DNA of 64,000 nt from an uncultured Actinomycetota bacterium (lineage in GTDB: Bacteria; Actinomycetota; Actinomycetes; DATJPE01), in assembly GCA_963820065.1 (NCBI GenBank), contig CAWFYM010000001.1:168767-232766 (forward strand), read 5' to 3'. Each line of letters opens with the position of its first letter. Position 1 is the first letter of the stretch. This document shows positions 12,529 through 60,991 of this stretch, piece by piece. The position numbers were made by a program, and so were the translations under genes. The notes under the pieces were generated by a model that was given only the letters and a program-made list of their open reading frames with translations, had not been told where the DNA came from and made no database searches.

Positions 12529-12830
12529 CCGCCCCACCACCCCCTCCGCCCCCCACACGTGATCATGCGCAAATGGCCCCTGCCGTCCGGTCGGCCGCGC
12601 CCCGCCCGCCCGTCCACCCACCCCCCTTCGTGATCATGCGCAGATGGCCCCTCCGAGATCGCTCGGTCAGGGGCCATCTGCGCATGATCACGAAGGGGGA
12701 CGGTGGTCGTGGGGGAGGTTGAGCGTGGGCAGAGGGGCCATCTGCGCATGATCACGAGGGATGGTGGGTCGGGGTGATGGGGATGGGGATGGGGATGGGG
12801 CGCCCGGGGTCACGCGGGGTCACGCGGGGG
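12529..12830. repeat. Composite palindromic repeat element, copy A: C-rich arm, 2 direct core copies, loop, 2 inverted core copies, G-rich/G4 arm
   Basis: Core GTGATCATGCGCA(A/G)ATGGCCCCT at 12558-12580 and 12628-12650; its reverse complement at 12668-12690 and 12732-12754. The inner pair forms a roughly 31-bp perfect hairpin around loop ccgagatcgctcggtc. GGGGATGGGGATGGGGATGGGG lies at about 12775-12796. Confidence 0.85.
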
Positions 12831-46937: not shown

Positions 46938-48122
46938 ATGTCCGGCGAGTCCCGGTTCGCGAGCCCGGAGGGTCTCCCGGGCTCGCTCAACGCTGCCGTG
47001 GCCCCCGCGTACGGCTCCGACTCCCTCACGGACCTGTTGCCGTCCGTCGCCACCGGTTTCGGCCTCCCTGGGGCGCGCGACACCGTGGACCTGCCAGAGG
47101 CACGATCGGTCGTCCTGCTTCTGGTCGACGGCCTCGGCGCCGAGGCGCTGAGCGCTGCCGACCCGGCGTTCGCGCCGGTGCTGAGCGCGCTGGCCGAGCC
47201 GGGGCGTCGGCTCACGACCTGCTTCCCCTCGACAACCTCCACGAGCATCACCTCGCTGGCCACGGGGCTGCCTCCCGGGGCGCACGGCATCGTGGGCTAC
47301 CAGTTCCGCCTCCCTGGACACGGTCTGCTCAACACCTTGAGCTGGCCGAACGCGCTCGATCCGGCGGACGTGCAGGACCGCCCCAACCTGCTGGCTGCGC
47401 TGCTGCAGGTGGGCGTTGCGGTCAGTCATGTGGGCCCGCGGGCCTACACCTCCAGCGGTCTCACAAGGGCGGCGATGGCAGGAACGCCGTACGTCGGCGC
47501 GGACTCGCCGGGCGAAAAGGTCGCCGCAGCGATGGCTGCCCTTCGAGACGAGCGAAGGGTCCTGGTCAACGTCTACACCAGTGAGCTCGACAACACCGGG
47601 CATCTGAACGGCGTCGACTCAGACGCCTGGCGGGCCCAGCTCGGTCATGTCGATCGGCTCGTCGAGCAGCTGGTCTCGGCGTTGCCCGACGACGCGCTCC
47701 TGATCGTGACCGGCGACCATGGGATGGTCGACGCGCTGCCTCAGGCCGCCGTCGACGTCCAGGGTGACGACGAGCTTGCTCATGGTGTCTCTCTGCTCGG
47801 AGGAGAACCACGTGCGCGGCACGTCTACGCCGCACCGGGGGCCGCTTCGGACGTGCTGTCGACCTGGCGGGAACGCCTCGCCGACGTGGCGTGGGTGCTG
47901 TCCCGCGAGGAGGCCGTCGAAGCCGGCTGGTTCGGCGAGGTCCGACCCGAGATCGCCGACCGGATCGGTGACGTCGTCGCCGCTTGTCATGCCCCCGGCG
48001 CGCTGCTGCTCGCCACCCGTACGCATCCCCACGAAGCGATGCTGGTCGGTCACCACGGCTCGCTGACGCCGGCGGAGGCGTACGTCCCCCTGGTGCTGGC
48101 CACGTCGCAGGACTCCCGATGA
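46938..48122 (+). CDS. alkaline phosphatase family protein (type I phosphodiesterase/nucleotide pyrophosphatase-like)
   Basis: VVLLLVDGLGAEAL, FPSTTSTSITSLATGLPPGAHGIVGY, IVTGDHGM are metal-binding motifs of the AlkP superfamily. Confidence 0.8.
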   Translation: MSGESRFASPEGLPGSLNAAVAPAYGSDSLTDLLPSVATGFGLPGARDTVDLPEARSVVLLLVDGLGAEALSAADPAFAPVLSALAEPGRRLTTCFPSTTSTSITSLATGLPPGAHGIVGYQFRLPGHGLLNTLSWPNALDPADVQDRPNLLAALLQVGVAVSHVGPRAYTSSGLTRAAMAGTPYVGADSPGEKVAAAMAALRDERRVLVNVYTSELDNTGHLNGVDSDAWRAQLGHVDRLVEQLVSALPDDALLIVTGDHGMVDALPQAAVDVQGDDELAHGVSLLGGEPRARHVYAAPGAASDVLSTWRERLADVAWVLSREEAVEAGWFGEVRPEIADRIGDVVAACHAPGALLLATRTHPHEAMLVGHHGSLTPAEAYVPLVLATSQDSR

Positions 48123-48469
48123 GCCGGCCGCTGGAGGCGTGTCGCTCGTTCGCGCTCGGCCTGCCCGAGGCCTGGGAGGACCAGCCCTGGGAGGAATCGT
48201 TGGTGGCCAAGGTCGGCCAGAAGATCTTTGTCTTCTTCGGTCCGCCCGAGCAGCCCGGGATCTCGGTCAAGCTGCCGGACAGCGCCGACCATGCGCTGAG
48301 CCTGGCTGCGGGCGCACCGACCGGCTATGGGCTCGGCCGCCACCGCTGGGTGAGCCTCGACCTTGCCGCGCGTGACTGCCCGGACACCGAGGTCCTGTTC
48401 GACTGGGTCGAGGAGAGCTACCGCACCGTGGCGCCCAAACGCCTGGTGACCCAGCTCGACACCCCCTAA
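48119..48469 (+). CDS. MmcQ/YjbR family DNA-binding protein
   Basis: ATG overlaps the AlkP stop (ATGA). MSRPLEACRSFALGLPEAWEDQPWEESLVAKVGQKIFVFFGPP matches the family. The track ORF from 47984 is an extension. Confidence 0.7.
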   Translation: MSRPLEACRSFALGLPEAWEDQPWEESLVAKVGQKIFVFFGPPEQPGISVKLPDSADHALSLAAGAPTGYGLGRHRWVSLDLAARDCPDTEVLFDWVEESYRTVAPKRLVTQLDTP

Positions 48470-48574
48470 CCCGCCCCGCTCATGCCCCTGGGCCCCCGCC
48501 CAAACCCCTGAGCCCTCGCCCCTCTGGTGGACGTCTTGATCGCGGGACTTCGGTCTCGCGGGGAGGATGTCTTC

Positions 48575-48871
48575 ATGTCAGGTCAACGTCGCAGATTTAC
48601 TCCGGCTTATCGGCGGGAGGCGGCTCATCTGGTGATCGATACCGGGCGGCCGATCGCGGTGGTCGCTCGGGAGATCGGTTTGGGTGAGCAGTTGTTGGGT
48701 CGGTGGGTCGCGGCCGAGCGAGCGCGGATGGCTGACCCGCCGGACGTGCTCGGGGAGGACGAGCGGGCCGAGCTGGCCCGTTTGCGTCTGGAGAACACCG
48801 AGCTGCGGATGGACCGGGAGTTCCTGAAAAAAGCTGCGGCCTTCTTCGCGACCGAACCCCAGAGCCGGTAG
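48575..48871 (+). CDS. IS3 family transposase OrfA (HTH)
   Basis: MSGQRRRFTPAYRREAAHLVIDTGRPIAVVAREIGLGEQLLGRWV...LENTELRMDREFLKKAAAFF. RBS GGGGAGG. Confidence 0.85.
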   Translation: MSGQRRRFTPAYRREAAHLVIDTGRPIAVVAREIGLGEQLLGRWVAAERARMADPPDVLGEDERAELARLRLENTELRMDREFLKKAAAFFATEPQSR

Positions 48872-48882
48872 AGGCTTACGCG

Positions 48883-49761
48883 GTGATGGACGCGGAGAAG
48901 GCGGACTTCGCCCTCGACCGGATGGCTGAGCTGCTCGGGGTGTCCCGGTCGGGCTACCACGCTTGGGTTCGGCGGCTGGCCGCCGGTCCGAGCCGCGCTC
49001 AGCAGCGTCGGACCGACTTGACCGTGAAGATCGCGGCCTTCCACGCCGATTCCGATGCGGTCTATGGGTCCCCGCGGATCCTGGCCGACCTGCGCGAGGA
49101 CGGTGAGCGGGTCTCCCGCAAGACCGTCGCGAAGCTCATGCGCCAGGCGGGGATCGCCGGGATCAGCCCACGCAAGTTCACCCCGGTCACCACCCTGGCC
49201 GGCCCGGACCCGTGTCCGGTGCCCGACCTGGTCGGGCGGAAGTTCGACCGTGGTAGCCCGAACGTGGTCTGGACCAGCGACATCACCTACCTGGGCACCG
49301 ACCAGGGCTGGCTCTACCTGTGCGCGGTCCGCGACGCGTGCTCACGGCGCGTCCTGGGCTGGGCCATCGAGGACCACCTCCGCACCGACCTCGTCGAGGC
49401 TGCCCTGCGTATGGCGGTGACCTTGCGCGGTCACCTACCGGTCAAAGTGATCTTCCACGCCGACCGCGGCACCCAATACACCTCGACTCAGATCGCCGAG
49501 GTCATCAAAGACCTGCCCGTGCTGTCCTCGATGGGCCGCACCGGGGTCTGCTGGGACAACGCCCCTGCGGAGTCCTTCTGGTCCACGTTCAAAACCGAGT
49601 TCTACGACCGGCGCCACTGGGCCACGAAGGCCGAAGCCAAGCAGGCGTCAGCCCGCTGGATCGAGGAACGCTACAACCGCAAGAGACGCCACTCCTCGAT
49701 CGGCATGCTCACACCCGTACGCTTCGAAGCACTCAACCCTCAGACGGCACAAGCCGCCTGA
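48883..49761 (+). CDS. IS3 family transposase OrfB (integrase core DDE), probably expressed as an OrfAB fusion by -1 frameshift
   Basis: rve domain with DDE residues (...WTSDITYL..., ...HADRGTQYTS..., ...CWDNAPAESFWSTFKTEF). It is in the -1 frame relative to orfA and open back to the A6G run. Confidence 0.85.
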   Translation: MMDAEKADFALDRMAELLGVSRSGYHAWVRRLAAGPSRAQQRRTDLTVKIAAFHADSDAVYGSPRILADLREDGERVSRKTVAKLMRQAGIAGISPRKFTPVTTLAGPDPCPVPDLVGRKFDRGSPNVVWTSDITYLGTDQGWLYLCAVRDACSRRVLGWAIEDHLRTDLVEAALRMAVTLRGHLPVKVIFHADRGTQYTSTQIAEVIKDLPVLSSMGRTGVCWDNAPAESFWSTFKTEFYDRRHWATKAEAKQASARWIEERYNRKRRHSSIGMLTPVRFEALNPQTAQAA

Positions 49762-49775
49762 ACGCCTGTCCACCA

Positions 49776-50060
49776 GATGGGGTCAACCCCACCATCGTTC
49801 GTGATCATGCGCGGATGGCCCCTCTTGCCGCGCTCGGACCAACCTCCTAGGCCCCCGCTGGCCGCTGATCATGCGCGGATGGCCCCGCTTGCCCCTCGCC
49901 GCCACCGCCCGCCCGACCCGCCCCTCGGCGGCTAGGGGCCATCTGCGCATGATCACGAAGAGGGTGTGGGGTGTCCGATGGGGTGTGGGGTGTGGGGGTG
50001 TGGGGTGAGTTGGGGCTTTGGGAGTCGCGGGGGGTGGGCGTGCGACGATGTCGCGGCCGT
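49776..50060. repeat. Composite palindromic repeat element, copy B (right part; left C-rich arm at about 48468-48524 is separated from it by the IS3 element)
   Basis: Forward cores GTGATCATGCGCGGATGGCCCCT (49801-49823) and GCTGATCATGCGCGGATGGCCCC (about 49864-49886); inverted core AGGGGCCATCTGCGCATGATCAC (about 49934-49956); then G-rich GGGGTGT repeats at 49962-50040. Confidence 0.8.
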
Positions 50061-50113
50061 GCAGGCGTAGGGCGGCGGCCGGGCGCGGCCGAGTGAGAGG
50101 AGCCGGAGGAGCC

Positions 50114-50779
50114 ATGGCCGAGCTGGTCTTCTTCACCGGGACGATGGACTGCGGCAAGTCCACCCTCGCGCTGCAGACCGACTACAACCATGCCTCTCGG
50201 GGGCGAGTCGGCCTGATCCTGACCTCGCGCGACCGGGCTGGCGAGGCCACACTGTCGAGCCGCCTAGGGCTGTCGGTGCCTGCGCTCGAGATTCGAGAGT
50301 CCACAAACCTCTGGGAGACCGTGACGCGTCGGCTCCAGACCGGCGAGCGCATCGACTACCTGATCGCCGACGAGGCCCAGTTCTACGAGCCTGCCCAGGT
50401 TGACGACCTCGCGCGGCTGGTCGATGACGTCGGCATCGACGTGTTCGCTTTCGGCATCACGACCGACTTCCGAACCGCACTGTTCCCGGGCTCCCGCCGA
50501 CTGCTCGAGCTCGCCGACCGGGTTCAGCTGCTCCAGGTCGAAGTGCTGTGCTGGTGCGGCGCGCGCGCGACCCACAACGCCCGCACGCTCGACGGGGTCA
50601 TGGTGGTCGAGGGCGACCAGGTGGTGGTGGGTGACACTGCGGCAGCGGGGGAGCGGACCGCCGAGGTCGGGTACGAGGTGTTGTGTCGAGCCCACCACCG
50701 ACGGCAGGTCACGGCCGCTTCAGCCCACGCGGCTGCGCTGAGCCCGGACGTGCTCCCGTTCGGTGCGCCGGGCGCCTAG
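50114..50779 (+). CDS. tdk: thymidine kinase
   Basis: MAELVFFTGTMDCGKSTLALQ (P-loop); zinc ribbon CWCGARATHNAR...CRAHH. RBS GGAGGAG. Confidence 0.9.
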   Translation: MAELVFFTGTMDCGKSTLALQTDYNHASRGRVGLILTSRDRAGEATLSSRLGLSVPALEIRESTNLWETVTRRLQTGERIDYLIADEAQFYEPAQVDDLARLVDDVGIDVFAFGITTDFRTALFPGSRRLLELADRVQLLQVEVLCWCGARATHNARTLDGVMVVEGDQVVVGDTAAAGERTAEVGYEVLCRAHHRRQVTAASAHAAALSPDVLPFGAPGA

Positions 50780-50808: not shown

Positions 50809-51909
50809 TCAGTCCTCGGGGCCGGAGCTGCCGCCGAACAGGATCTCGTCCCAGCTGGGCACCGAGGCGCGCCGCCCGGCTCGTTTGGGGGACCGGCCCG
50901 TGGTGGGGCGCAACGGGCTGTCCTTCTCGGCTTCTGGCGGCGACTCGGGTTCGGAGTCATCCATCGAGTCGGTGCCGTCCACGACAGCGCCGTGGTCGTC
51001 AGCGTCATCGGCCGGAGCCTCGATCGGCGGGGCATCGACGTCATCGTCGGTGGTGCTGAGGGTGGTGGTACTGAGGGTGGTGGTACTGAGGGTGGTGTCG
51101 CTGACATCGGTGTCGCTGGCGTCGGCGACATCGATGTCCCCATCGATGGCCCCATCGTCGACCACATCGGGCACGGCTGTGAGCCGCGGTGCCCCAGGGG
51201 AGGCCGGTGGGAATTCTGGGGCGTCTGAGTCATCTGGGTCGTCTGAGGCGGGATCGTTCTCAGAGGCGGCTGGGCCTGCTGGTGCGGTTGACGCCTTCTG
51301 TGACCGACCGCGCGACCCACGCTTCGGCTCGGGCACGGCGCGCTCGTCCCCGATGAGCCAGTCGGCCTCGTCGTCGTGGGGTTCGAGGGTCCGGCGCTGG
51401 TGGTCGAACAGCCAGGTCGCCGAGCGCTCCCGACCTCCGTGGACGTAGTCGAGCCGCACCGCCCAGCGGCCATCTTCGCGGCGTCGTGCGTCCCAGGCCA
51501 GGTCGTCGGGTTCGACTCCGCGGGCCCCGAGCCGCTCCAGCACCAGGGCATCGAGCTGGTGGGCCGCGGAATCGGTGACTCGACGAACGTTGGTGCGCTG
51601 GGCCAGATCGGCGATGTACCAGCGTTCTTGCAGCACCGGTCCCTCGAAGCGACGGATCCGCTCGACCGGGACCTGGGAGGCGATCGCGATCTCCTCGGCG
51701 GTCTGGCCGGCCCTGATGCGCGACTGGATCTCGCGGGGGGTCAACTGGTTCTCGAGCTCGATCTGCAGCTGGCCCAGACGCGCTCGATCACCCCGCATGG
51801 CCGCGTGCACGCGTTCGTCGAGCGGAAGACCGTACGGCGTGCCGTCGGTGCCTTCGAGCAGCAGGCGCGAGCCGTCGTCGCTCACGCCGAGCAGCCGTAG
51901 GTGCTCCAT
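50809..51909 (-). CDS. sepH: septation protein SepH (DUF3071)
   Basis: MEHLRLLGVSDDGSRLLLEGTDGTPYGLPLDERVHAAMRGD is the DUF3071 N-terminus. It has an acidic disordered middle with a (TTLST)3 tandem repeat and a conserved C-terminus RRASVPSWDEILFGG. The track ORF to 52065 is a 5' extension. Confidence 0.8.
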   Translation of the reverse strand: MEHLRLLGVSDDGSRLLLEGTDGTPYGLPLDERVHAAMRGDRARLGQLQIELENQLTPREIQSRIRAGQTAEEIAIASQVPVERIRRFEGPVLQERWYIADLAQRTNVRRVTDSAAHQLDALVLERLGARGVEPDDLAWDARRREDGRWAVRLDYVHGGRERSATWLFDHQRRTLEPHDDEADWLIGDERAVPEPKRGSRGRSQKASTAPAGPAASENDPASDDPDDSDAPEFPPASPGAPRLTAVPDVVDDGAIDGDIDVADASDTDVSDTTLSTTTLSTTTLSTTDDDVDAPPIEAPADDADDHGAVVDGTDSMDDSEPESPPEAEKDSPLRPTTGRSPKRAGRRASVPSWDEILFGGSSGPED

Positions 51910-60163: not shown

Positions 60164-60500
60164 CCCACCCCTCCGCCCAACCCCACCCGCTCGTGATCAT
60201 GCGCAGATGGCCCCTGTCGGGCCGCGTGCCGCGCCGCGCAACCCCAACCCCCCTCGTGATCATGCGCAGATGGCCCCTATTTTCCGGTGCCGGGGCCTCT
60301 AGCCGTCGGTGGCGTCGTGGTGCTGCACAGGTGCCCGCCGCTTCGTCGCGGTTCCTGTGACTCGATCGCTTGGGTGCTGTCCGCAGTCCCACAGGCGCGG
60401 AAGTACGGGCCATTTGCGCATGATCACGGATGGGTGTGGGTCTAACTGGGGAGGATCAGCGGGGGACCAGGGGCCATCTGCGCATGATCACGAGGGGGGT
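60164..60500. repeat. Composite palindromic repeat element, copy C: C-rich arm, 2 direct cores, 130-bp central segment, 2 inverted cores, G-rich arm
   Basis: GTGATCATGCGCAGATGGCCCCT at 60193-60215 and 60257-60279. Inverted copies are GGGCCATTTGCGCATGATCAC (about 60408-60428) and AGGGGCCATCTGCGCATGATCAC (60469-60491). The stop codon of the convergent DUF3093 gene lies inside the last inverted core. Confidence 0.85.
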
Positions 60501-60991
60501 GGTGCTGGGGGGCGGGCAGCCTCGAGGGCGGCGACGAGGGCCTCGGGATGGCGCGTGGACACATACCAGTACGGCGCTGGGTCTGCCGCGTCCGCCACCT
60601 CAACCCGGACGGCGGTCGGCACCCAGCTGCGGAGGTACAAGTAGGCCCGGGGATCAGCCCCGGGGCCTCTCAGCCAGCGCGCGGCCGCGGCGTCGAGAGC
60701 CACGGCGGCACCCGCTTGGGCTAGGGGCAACCGGGCCCGCCCCGCGCGAAGCGTCGCGTCTTCGACGCTGACCCGCGCGCTCGTCGCTCGCAGCCCCAGC
60801 ACCACCCCCACACCACAGCCAAGCAGCACCACCAGCCCTGCCCACGGTCCGAGCGCGGCCTCGATCGCTACCGCGAACACGGCGACGACGCCCAGCGCCA
60901 CGACCCACAGGCCTGGGGGGGCCGGAATCGACTCGCGAAAAGCCACGTCACGCGAGCCGCTGGCCGCGTCGCCTGTTCCACCACCCGCCAT
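60488..60991 (-). CDS. DUF3093 domain-containing protein
   Basis: Two N-terminal TM helices, then ...RAYLYLRSWVPTAVRVEVADAADPAPYWYVSTRHPEALVAAL, matching DUF3093 (Rv2698-like). The start may be internal. Confidence 0.7.
   Translation of the reverse strand: MAGGGTGDAASGSRDVAFRESIPAPPGLWVVALGVVAVFAVAIEAALGPWAGLVVLLGCGVGVVLGLRATSARVSVEDATLRAGRARLPLAQAGAAVALDAAAARWLRGPGADPRAYLYLRSWVPTAVRVEVADAADPAPYWYVSTRHPEALVAALEAARPPAPPPS

Follow-up and report, generated by a model that had tools for sequence, protein, structure and literature searches.

An IS3-family insertion sequence with a truncated left end lodged in a clustered palindromic repeat upstream of tdk in an uncultured actinobacterium

The yjbR-tdk intergenic region of an uncultured high-GC actinobacterium contains an IS3-family insertion sequence (IS) lodged in a copy (copy B) of a clustered extragenic palindromic repeat, of which two further copies (A and C) are present in the window, that is, the whole stretch of 64,000 nucleotides analysed here. 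The IS most likely inserted into the C-rich leader of copy B and subsequently lost its left end by deletion, a course of events that we regard as well supported and that would have left the IS stranded. The features of the locus are the following:

48119 to 48469, plus strand: yjbR-family gene (116 aa; Pfam PF04237 YjbR, E = 3.5e-13)
48470 to 48518, plus strand: C-rich arm, putative left leader of copy B (49 nt with 29 C and 10 G)
48519 to 49791, plus strand: IS3-family IS, 1273 bp kept of the 1283-bp archetype (blastn and end alignment against L004-L008 and L035-L040)
48519 to 48532, plus strand: left inverted repeat, surviving as CCCC-TCTGGTGGAC and lacking its outer TGGGGTTGA, perhaps also CCCCA
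48575 to 48871, plus strand: orfA (98 aa, HTH_Tnp_1; Pfam PF01527)
48827 to 48833, plus strand: A6G slippery motif (AAAAAAG) within orfA, conserved in L005 and L006
48883 to 49761, plus strand: orfB in the -1 frame (292 aa from GTG, 291 aa from ATG at 48886; Pfam rve, rve_3 and HTH_21)
49768 to 49791, plus strand: right inverted repeat GTCCACCAGATGGGGTCAACCCCA, intact and identical in L004-L007
49792 to 49823, plus strand: 9 nt of unit leader (CCATCGTTC) and forward core F1 (GTGATCATGCGCGGATGGCCCCT) (nhmmer E = 1.9e-12)
49867 to 49886, plus strand: forward core F2, matching the core pattern exactly
49887 to 49933, plus strand: C-rich spacer from F2 to the inverted core, paralogue of the left arm (score 32) and orthologue of the C-rich run in L001
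49934 to 49956, minus strand: inverted core R (AGGGGCCATCTGCGCATGATCAC on the plus strand), found by core pattern search, with its 20-nt core at 49935-49954
49957 to 50039, plus strand: G-rich arm of GGGGTGT(G) repeats (TRF array at 49962-50007, period 7-8, about 6.7 copies)
50042 to 50054, plus strand: small hairpin GCGACGATGTCGC upstream of tdk, a predicted stem-loop in folds, conserved with L001
50114 to 50779, plus strand: tdk, thymidine kinase (221 aa; Pfam PF00265 (TK); 95% identity to P0001)

The IS had been assigned to the IS3 family by a first-pass annotation of the window, and this is borne out by a score of 309 bits of its transposase against NF033516 (cut-off 160) and by the Pfam domains HTH_Tnp_1 in orfA and rve in orfB. 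The integrase core of orfB (Pfam rve, E = 6e-22) keeps an intact DDE triad (D133, D194 and E230, invariant in alignment A1), the protein is 100% identical to P0121, and the slippery motif TTCCTGAAAAAAGC is conserved between the window, L005 and L006. This is an ordinary IS3-family IS, sharing with the archetypes of the family (IS3, IS911 and IS150; NCBIfam NF033516) a length of about 1.28 kb, orfA (HTH_Tnp_1) and orfB (rve, DDE) in the 0 and -1 frames, the A6G motif and, in its full-length relatives, 24-bp terminal inverted repeats that start with 5'-TG and finish with CA-3'. It differs from them in having neither a target duplication nor the terminal 9-14 nt of its left inverted repeat, and in the phasing of the A-run, which reads AAA-AAA-G in the orfA frame instead of the canonical A-AAA-AAG, with either ribosomal or transcriptional slippage as the candidate process. 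The nearest annotated IS relatives are only 57-63% identical and are carried on plasmids of Mycobacterium, Cryobacterium and Corynebacterium; a megablast search of the IS against plasmids gave zero matches, and the IS could be given no ISfinder name. orfB was found on only one contig of the source assembly, the IS being single-copy in the source contig set.

The ends of the IS were defined by comparison with eight independent relatives of 1283-1285 bp, which are bounded by 24-bp inverted repeats (TGGGGTTGACCCCATCTGGTGGAC...GTCCACCAGATGGGGTCAACCCCA). The left end TGGGGTTGACCCCATCTGGTGGAC is present in all eight relatives having a left end (in L040 with a single substitution), and the flanks diverge right after CCCCA in every IS copy compared. 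The first-pass annotation had delimited the IS at 48525 and 49775, where TGGTGGAC does begin and GTCCACCA does stop, but blastn homology to the independent copies extends 6 nt to the left and 16-17 nt to the right of these boundaries, reaching 48519-48523 on one side and a true end at 49791 on the other. The right end of the window copy (...GGTCAACCCCA) closes at this position with its CA-3' present, and the relatives identify GATGGGGTCAACCCCA (49776-49791) as the outer part of the right inverted repeat. The distance of about 25 bp previously seen between the IS and the forward cores is thus made up of 16 nt of IS and 9 nt of flank, after which the extended F1 core begins. The corrected annotation (IS at 48519-49791, not 48525-49775) is of practical value.

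The IS had also been described as complete, and in this respect the description has to be changed. Homology to the relatives on the left begins only at 48519-48523, so 9-14 nt are gone from the outer side of the left inverted repeat, which reads GAGCCCTCGCCCC-TCTGGTGGAC against TGGGGTTGACCCCATCTGGTGGAC in the relatives, the right repeat being perfect; a full-length copy of the window IS natively starting GAGCCCTCGCCCCTCTGGTGGAC would mean that there is no truncation. A CCCC microhomology between the IS and the arm leaves about 4 nt of uncertainty in the position of the left junction. A 3-4-bp target-site duplication, proposed as a check on the insertion, is present neither at 48525/49775 (CTC / GAT) nor at the corrected ends (...CCTCG / CCATC) nor at several alternative boundaries; the IS in L005 is flanked by a 4-bp target duplication, CGGC. 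Loss of the left end explains the missing duplication and makes the left junction a secondary deletion junction, not the insertion site, and because the duplication is missing the original target cannot be reconstructed. Since one terminal TG end is missing, the IS is most likely stranded; it is a decayed, probably immobile copy with only one usable end though its full coding capacity is kept.

On the right side of the IS, the forward cores, the single inverted core and the G-rich GGGGTGT repeats that had been reported were all located. The 20-nt core of F1 lies at 49803-49822, preceded by a 9-nt leader that resembles the leader of unit A-R1 (cccaccatccctcgt), and the G-rich arm falls within a stretch of extreme G-over-C skew (49947-50053). 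All three cores and the G-rich arm are contiguous on this side, so that the term "disrupted allele" used for copy B applies only in the sense of a mild disruption. Its position just upstream of tdk was confirmed by the Pfam TK match, and a 23-nt block upstream of this gene (GGCGTGCGACGATGTCGCGGCCG) is the same in the window and in L001. A scan of 48300-50300 for sigma-70 and intrinsic-terminator consensus sequences gave nothing useful.

The cores of copy B belong to a repeat family that stands out clearly in the window. The 20-nt core GATCATGCGCRGATGGCCCC has 11 matches at up to 3 mismatches in the 64 kb, against 0.04 expected (none of 100 shuffles reaches 11), and these 11 units are grouped in three extragenic clusters, of which copies A and C are:

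12529 to 12830, no strand assigned: copy A, with C-rich leader, F1, F2, 16-nt loop, R2, R1 and G-rich arm, between convergent genes (RNA fold -213 kcal/mol, z = -8.0)
60164 to 60520, no strand assigned: copy C, with F1, F2, 128-nt loop, R2 and R1, between convergent genes (RNA fold -226 kcal/mol, z = -9.2)

Copies A and C have the core order F F R R, copy B has F F R, and the three differ in size (270, about 320 and 357 nt) and internal content. Each unit is an unstructured sequence composed of a C-rich leader and a 24-nt core, always directed away from the stop codon of the adjacent gene. Single units have predicted energies of only -0.1 to -3.1 kcal/mol (z = +0.4 to +1.6), and only opposed pairs fold, giving very long hairpins (z = -13.7 for the inner 78-nt hairpin of copy A). 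Neither MITE-type terminal inverted repeats nor a target duplication could be defined, with no duplicated flank evident, and the empty site in L003 has diverged beyond alignment. Rfam returned nothing at gathering thresholds; at E values up to 1, copy A gave only generic long-hairpin (miRNA precursor) sub-threshold matches and copy B none. Scans with the core 20-mer found 13 matches in 185,579 species genomes and 13 in a JGI metagenome set, nearly all of which correspond by coincidence to one coding sequence conserved in Rhizobiales (Brucella, Phyllobacterium and relatives), the only bona fide unit among them being in L019, an Actinomycetota MAG. A literature search for the core sequence found no paper. 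By these searches, the element is a lineage-specific clustered intergenic palindromic repeat that is almost absent from public genomes. Our best guess is that it could act as a 3'-end module, in which a C-rich, G-poor rut-like tract and a hairpin would terminate or stabilise the transcripts of the flanking genes. As a family absent from Rfam that combines a C-rich leader and GTGATCATGCGCAGATGGCCCCT, with hairpins of -210 to -226 kcal/mol right after stop codons, it offers a modest lead on actinobacterial 3'-end formation.

Whether the IS lies inside this element depends on the C-rich stretch at its left. This run had been placed at 48468-48524; it does follow the yjbR stop directly, with nothing between the TAA and the arm, but it starts at 48470, since 48468 takes in the AA of the TAA. 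The arm (48470-48518) is a 20-nt tandem of about 2.4 copies of CCCCGCCCAAACCCCTGAGC (TRF). It is one of the five stretches with the strongest C skew in the window, a group to which copies A, B and C each contribute their left edge. Its best gapped match in the unit set is the C-rich spacer that follows F2, in forward orientation only and at a score reached by 1 of 500 mononucleotide shuffles, a test to be read with the low complexity of the sequence in mind. Folding of an IS-free reconstruction of copy B predicts base pairing between the C-rich and G-rich arms (z = -2.2; z = +0.6 when the C-rich arm is left out), which is weak compared with copies A and C (z = -8 and -9). The stretch could instead be a mere 3' flank of yjbR, grown by a 20-nt tandem duplication, with the IS at the outer edge of the element, an explanation that we consider unlikely. 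It would account for the self-contained 20-nt tandem, for the lack of any unit-profile match in 48470-48524 (nhmmer, E up to 100), for blastn-short matches that are all short (E of at least 0.12) and for the better fit of the C-rich run of L001 to the F2-R spacer (18 of 21 positions identical) than to the left arm, so that this arm is only presumed to have been present when the IS inserted. It leaves aside, on the other hand, that copies A and C both open with a similarly C-skewed leader right after a stop codon, that the best match of the arm is the spacer of its own copy, that the arm supplies the complement of an otherwise unpaired G-rich arm, and that the 9 nt at the right of the IS are too short for a whole leader, which has about 25-30 nt elsewhere. 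The C-rich stretch thus plausibly belongs to the element as its leader or arm, and the earlier proposal that the IS landed inside a pre-existing element stands in outline, given F1 at 9 nt from the right end and the skew, match and pairing of the arm. A degenerate forward core ("F0") considered at 48478-48497 was discarded, since nhmmer, run up to E = 100, has no match there and the sole trace is a 16-mer match (E = 0.12).

The only close IS-free relative found, L001 (tdk 95% identical), has a yjbR with the same C-terminus and stop position as that of the window, and between yjbR and tdk it carries a C-rich run, half an inverted core (the 3' half of R, TGCGCATGATCAC) and a G-rich arm, but neither F1 nor F2. 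The sequence of L001 therefore places the element at this locus without the IS, in the form of a reduced remnant, with the reservation that L001 is a 1.7-kb metagenome contig in which the assembler could have collapsed the palindrome. L001 could also have lost an ancestral IS through a deletion of its own. More distant relatives (82% identity) have a yjbR-tdk gap of about 15-40 bp and lack the element. No intact IS-free allele was found among the relatives, and a metagenome scan for sister alleles with a 22-mer from the end of yjbR gave 0 matches. The first-pass annotation had expected IS-free relatives to display an intact element, which is not what these sequences contain; it had also named a lack of the C-rich arm or cores in such relatives as evidence against its reading, and in L001 a C-rich run is present along with one core half and the G-rich arm.

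From these data we infer the following order of events. A 1283-bp IS3-family IS would first have transposed into the space between yjbR and tdk, where it hit the C-rich leader of the foremost forward unit at a point 9 nt before the extended core GTGATCATGCGCGGATGGCCCCT. A minor deletion, in which the transposase had no part and which probably came from slippage between the CCCC runs of the leader and the IS end, would subsequently have taken away the left copy of the target duplication, the terminal 9-14 nt of the adjoining inverted repeat and perhaps 10-20 nt of leader. The C-rich arm (48470-48518) would thereby have been fused to the inner part of the IS end. In this course of events, TGGGGTTGACCCCATC would be the repaired form of the truncated left end.

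Two other histories would separate the flanks or reverse the order, and both seem to us very improbable. The flanks might come from different loci, joined by recombination (inversion or deletion) between two IS copies, as the absence of a target duplication and the exchange of flanks among relatives (the left flank of L036 is the reverse complement of the right flank of L039) could suggest; yet L001, L002 and L003 all have yjbR next to tdk in the same orientation, so that neither flank has moved from its ancestral position, an exchange between IS copies by homologous recombination would spare the left end, which is truncated in the window, and orfB is confined to one contig of the source assembly. 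Alternatively, the repeat units might have arrived after the IS, as a mobile F1-F2-R element inserted beside it. Absence of the element in the relatives with 82% identity, which implies a gain in the lineage of the window, and the nested F1 F2 R2 R1 order of A and C, which suggests insertion or duplication of units, would fit such an arrival; the units would nevertheless have had to insert precisely at the last nucleotide of the IS, and L001 has an R core remnant and a G-rich arm with no IS. Insertion into the leader followed by loss of the left end remains the preferred explanation.

As a class, the repeat resembles REP sequences and BIMEs, sharing with them short conserved extragenic repeats at a regular spacing of 63-71 nt, a location at gene 3' ends, often between convergent genes, and clusters that form strong secondary structures. 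It differs in that a single unit is no palindrome and does not fold (REP units are imperfect palindromes of 20-40 nt with a stem-loop fold), in that the units are nested F F R R and do not alternate, in the long C-rich leader of each core and in the near absence of the exact core elsewhere. REPs are associated with a RAYT (Y1 transposase) gene flanked by units; the Pfam scan, which covered the genes beside copy B, revealed no RAYT. Neisseria Correia elements, ERIC and RUP are palindromic MITE-like repeats that act as terminators. With these the element has in common an intergenic location, inverted repeats as the basis of units some 100-300 nt long, and gain or loss among close relatives (L001 versus L003); to our knowledge, it has no parent transposase.

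Insertion of IS3-family elements into REP-like repeats is an already known phenomenon: IS1397, ISKpn1 and ISPsy8 are REP-specific members of the family, in the strictest class every copy is associated with a REP, ISPsy8 breaks the REP at one fixed point, and IS110-family ISs with a fixed insertion point in the repeat have also been described (Tobes and Pareja 2006, PMC1525189). The first-pass annotation had called the element a hot spot, or at least a tolerated target, for transposition. One insertion shows tolerance; a hot spot finds no backing in a single-copy IS, in copies A and C being IS-free and in relatives of the IS at loci without the window core. It is conceivable, if doubtful, that the IS3 clade of the window prefers clustered intergenic repeats and that the element is a genuine preferred target. 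In the P0135 group, which is 78% identical, three of the five distinct sites (L035, L037 and L038) are in arrays of 35-40-nt repeats (GACCGCACGGTCCCTAGGTTTGYCGGGTT), L006, L036 and L039 adjoin C-rich or G-rich tracts, the 32-nt left flank of L040 contains GTGATCATGC, a 10-mer of the window core, and REP targeting by IS3-family members is documented (PMC1525189). Nevertheless, the position relative to the repeat unit varies from copy to copy, in contrast to the fixed point of PMC1525189, the repeats hit in the relatives have no sequence relationship to the window core, the flanks of L004 and L005 are ordinary, the single IS of the source contig set leaves A and C unoccupied, and either survivorship in dispensable DNA or metagenome-assembly bias could give the same picture. 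Less likely still is the combined proposal that an actinobacterial IS3 clade (with ends TGGGGTTGACCCCATCTGGTGGAC) prefers clustered structure-forming intergenic repeats of any host sequence, and that the repeat is an undescribed, lineage-restricted mobile bidirectional terminator, providing both members of convergent gene pairs with C-rich rut-like tracts and giant hairpins. If true, it would extend the IS1397/ISKpn1/ISPsy8 phenomenon to high-GC Gram-positives. The findings leave the general understanding of IS elements and repeats unchanged and add another case of an IS3-family element within a repeat cluster, this time from an uncultured actinobacterium of high GC content. As with IS1397, ISKpn1 and ISPsy8, an IS3-family element lies within a cluster of extragenic palindromic repeats, and repeat arrays also house some of its relatives; unlike them, the IS of the window occupies one of three elements, as a single copy, and its relatives have inserted at varying points.

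An ordinary, decayed IS3 insertion lies in a lineage-specific intergenic repeat cluster (copy B) between yjbR and tdk. The first-pass annotation of this locus was accurate on its sequence features (cores, G-rich array and gene order were all recovered) and mistaken on the ends and completeness of the IS, so that its observation is confirmed, and its interpretation supported, only in part. Downstream of yjbR lie, in this order, a C-rich run, the element that bears orfA and orfB, the 20-nt core in two forward (F) copies and one inverted (R) copy, a G-rich array and tdk. These features and the two other clusters of the window are:

12529-12830: copy A, F1 F2 R2 R1, extragenic, between convergent genes
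48119-48469, + strand: yjbR-family gene (Pfam YjbR)
48575-48871: orfA, 98 aa, HTH_Tnp_1 protein
48883-49761: orfB, rve core, -1 frame
yjbR-tdk intergenic region: copy B, F1 F2 R, extragenic
49962-50007: G-rich array of copy B, GGGGTGT(G) x about 6.7
50114-50779, + strand: tdk (Pfam TK)
60164-60520: copy C, F1 F2 R2 R1, extragenic, between convergent genes

The core, GATCATGCGCRGATGGCCCC, has 11 matches in the window with up to three mismatches (0.04 expected; none of 100 shuffles reaches 11), and a profile made from the 11 units (C-rich leader plus core) recovers exactly those and no others in a window search.

OrfB scores 309 bits against the NCBIfam IS3 model (cut-off 160), its DDE residues do not vary among relatives, and an AAAAAAG run (48827-48833) is also kept in them. 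The ends of the IS were compared with those of independent related copies on metagenome contigs (L004-L008 and L035-L040; orfB 78-93% identical), whose homology to the window extends past the boundaries first proposed, 6 nt leftward and 16-17 nt rightward. All compared copies finish on the right in ...GTCCACCAGATGGGGTCAACCCCA, with unrelated flanks beyond it, and every copy having a left end starts with TGGGGTTGACCCCATCTGGTGGAC, except for a single substitution in L040; the related ISs have a full length of 1283-1285 bp and TG...CA termini, typical of IS3. Because the related copies end in this way, the right end of the window IS is at 49791, giving a corrected span of 48519-49791. The ends originally assigned (TGGTGGAC at 48525 and GTCCACCA at 49775) cover no more than the inner portion of the inverted repeats, and the presumed spacer gatggggtcaacccca is part of the IS, judging from the ends of the related copies. 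Only CCATCGTTC lies between the IS right end and the extended core F1 (GTGATCATGCGCGGATGGCCCCT, 49801-49823). In L007, whose copy shares the site of the one in L006, the right-end terminal 11 nt (GGTCAACCCCA) are tandemly duplicated (L007:1185-1217).

The IS had been described as complete, but its left inverted repeat is damaged relative to the related copies. Where these have TGGGGTTGACCCCATCTGGTGGAC, the window reads GAGCCCTCGCCCC-TCTGGTGGAC: the outer 9 nt of the repeat (14 nt if CCCC is counted as arm) are replaced by arm sequence, and 8 of the outer 16 positions match in an ungapped comparison. The right inverted repeat is perfect and the IS body is 87.6% identical to that of L005, a full-length relative with a 4-bp target duplication (CGGC). 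No target-site duplication was found in the window at the first proposed ends (CTC/GAT) or at the corrected ones (TCG/CCA), an absence for which the left-end damage accounts, and the left junction is a secondary deletion junction. Since deletions that a transposase makes beside an IS spare its end, slippage between CCCC runs is the probable origin of this one. IS3 elements without one terminal TG should be unable to transpose and, since one is missing here, the window IS is most likely a stranded copy, with intact genes. It appears to be single-copy on its source contig, because orfA and orfB, like tdk and yjbR, are each recorded on one contig only (564 kb, NCBI/ENA) in the protein collection.

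The C-rich arm to the left of the IS (48470-48518) most likely represents the element's outer leader. It has 29 C and 10 G in its 49 nt, a C skew that places it in the top five of the window; the left edges of copies A, B and C account for three of these five, and the strongest G skew is found largely at the right edges of the same three copies. Like copies A and C, the arm begins directly after a stop codon. Compared with all units in both orientations, it gives its best gapped local match to the C-rich spacer 3' of F2 in the same copy (score 32, as high in 1 of 500 shuffles; at most 16 in reverse orientation), and after in silico removal of the IS it pairs with the otherwise partnerless G-rich arm, and F1 with R. 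That the stretch is not part of the element is suggested by the unit profile, which has no match in it, and by its being a self-contained 20-nt tandem (48474-48521; 2.4 copies of CCCCGCCCAAACCCCTGAGC, 82% matches); moreover, the fold signal of IS-free copy B (-178.6 kcal/mol, z = -2.2; right part alone z = +0.6) is faint beside those of copy A (z = -8.0) and copy C (z = -9.2). On balance the evidence favours the outer leader, in agreement with the first-pass annotation.

Among about 15 billion proteins searched, the closest relative was found on a single JGI metagenome contig, L001 (tdk 95% identical; the tdk cluster has two members only). Its yjbR-tdk gap, of 217 bp, contains no IS and reads stop codon, CTGCCCCCCGCCGCCGCCACCCCC, TGCGCATGATCAC (the 3' half of the inverted core), GGGTTGG-type G-rich repeats and then GGCGTGCGACGATGTCGCGGCCG, a 23-nt block identical in the window (50037-50059) and L001 (L001:690-712) within a spacer diverged by indels. 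This block may be a regulatory site of tdk; it carries a small palindrome, GCGAC-GAT-GTCGC. An IS-free relative retains a C-rich run and a half core and so does not refute the first-pass interpretation, although the intact allele that had been anticipated is not present, as F1 and F2 are absent. A half core derives only from a whole one, so the element is older than the divergence of the two lineages and is present at the locus without the IS. The C-rich run of L001 aligns better with the F2-R spacer (18/21) than with the left arm, and it is conceivable that L001 once had an IS and lost it through a deletion of its own. In L002 and L003 (tdk identity 82%) the gap is about 15-40 bp, with no element, so the whole element is a recent gain in the window lineage.

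Upstream of tdk, the three cores, the G-rich arm and a conserved GCGACGATGTCGC hairpin (50042-50054) are still contiguous. The proposed disrupted allele is thus a mild one, because the IS cuts off only the outer C-rich arm. Beyond tdk, a 15-nt tandem (GGTGGTACTGAGGGT x about 3.7; 51049-51104) in a minus-strand DUF3071-like gene encodes repeated TTLST.

Each unit has a C-rich leader, 20-30 nt long, and then (T/C)CGTGATCATGCGCAGATGGCCCCT. Single units are unstructured (z = +0.4 to +1.6), whereas opposed units form near-perfect hairpins (inner pair of copy A, folded as DNA: -48.8 kcal/mol, z = -13.7). The sole self-complementary parts of the unit are two adjacent 6-bp dyads, TGATCA and TGCGCA, in the core (49803-49822). 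All units, those of copies A, B and C and the solitary one on L019, face away from the stop codon of the adjacent gene. In each flanking mRNA the core would therefore follow a C-rich, G-poor tract, an order that suggests a 3'-end module composed of a rut-like tract and a hairpin. Rfam gave no match to the element. In 185,579 species genomes and the JGI metagenome set the exact core is almost absent, one Actinomycetota MAG excepted. The sole bona fide unit found outside the window (L019:545-600; uncultured Actinomycetota MAG MFD00905.bin.2.215) is inverted, has a G-rich tail and no hairpin partner, and immediately adjoins a minus-strand gene at its stop codon. G4 tracts with 2-3-nt spacers, a G-quadruplex-type motif, make up the G-rich arms in every copy and in L001 (GGGGTT repeats); in copy A (12776-12829) the arm ends in GATGGG x 4.2 and CGGGGTCACG x 2.5, both of them perfect, microsatellite-like arrays. 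The 16-nt loop that copy A has between F2 and R2 corresponds in copy C to 128 nt with neither C nor G skew (60280-60400), possibly a further insertion inside the element. Classification as REP in the strict sense was rejected: unlike REP, the units are neither palindromic nor alternating in orientation.

Among the related ISs, L036:1-55 (left flank) is the exact reverse complement of L039:1427-1471 (right flank), which points to IS-mediated inversion or assembly ambiguity. Both belong to the P0135 group (78% identical to the window IS), most copies of which lack a target duplication. The left flank of the 80%-identical IS of L040 (L040:1-32) contains GTGATCATGC, a 10-mer of the window core, which may be there by chance (rough p about 0.02) or mark a diverged relative of the element; a palindrome, CCTGCGCGCAGG, adjoins the IS end, both sides carry an 8-nt direct repeat (ATGCAGTT) and the right flank is G-rich (L040:1317-1390).

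The element had also been proposed as a hot spot, or at least a tolerated target, for transposition; with a single-copy IS in just one of the three elements, no more than tolerance is shown. In the P0135 group, three of five distinct sites are inside arrays of unrelated repeats of ~35-40 nt (GACCGCACGGTCCCTAGGTTTGYCGGGTT; L035:1-212 and 1497-1540, L037:700-821 and 2107-2235, L038:1595-1680), and several other related copies adjoin C-rich or G-rich tracts. L035 has four tandem repeat units to the left of the IS and one inverted unit to the right. The P0135-group sites are suggestive of a preference for repeat arrays. The insertion point varies between copies, however, and the pattern could also come from survivorship in dispensable DNA or from assembly bias. 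REP sequences are established targets of the IS3-family elements IS1397, ISKpn1 and ISPsy8 (PMC1525189), so that even a real preference would only add a further case to those known.
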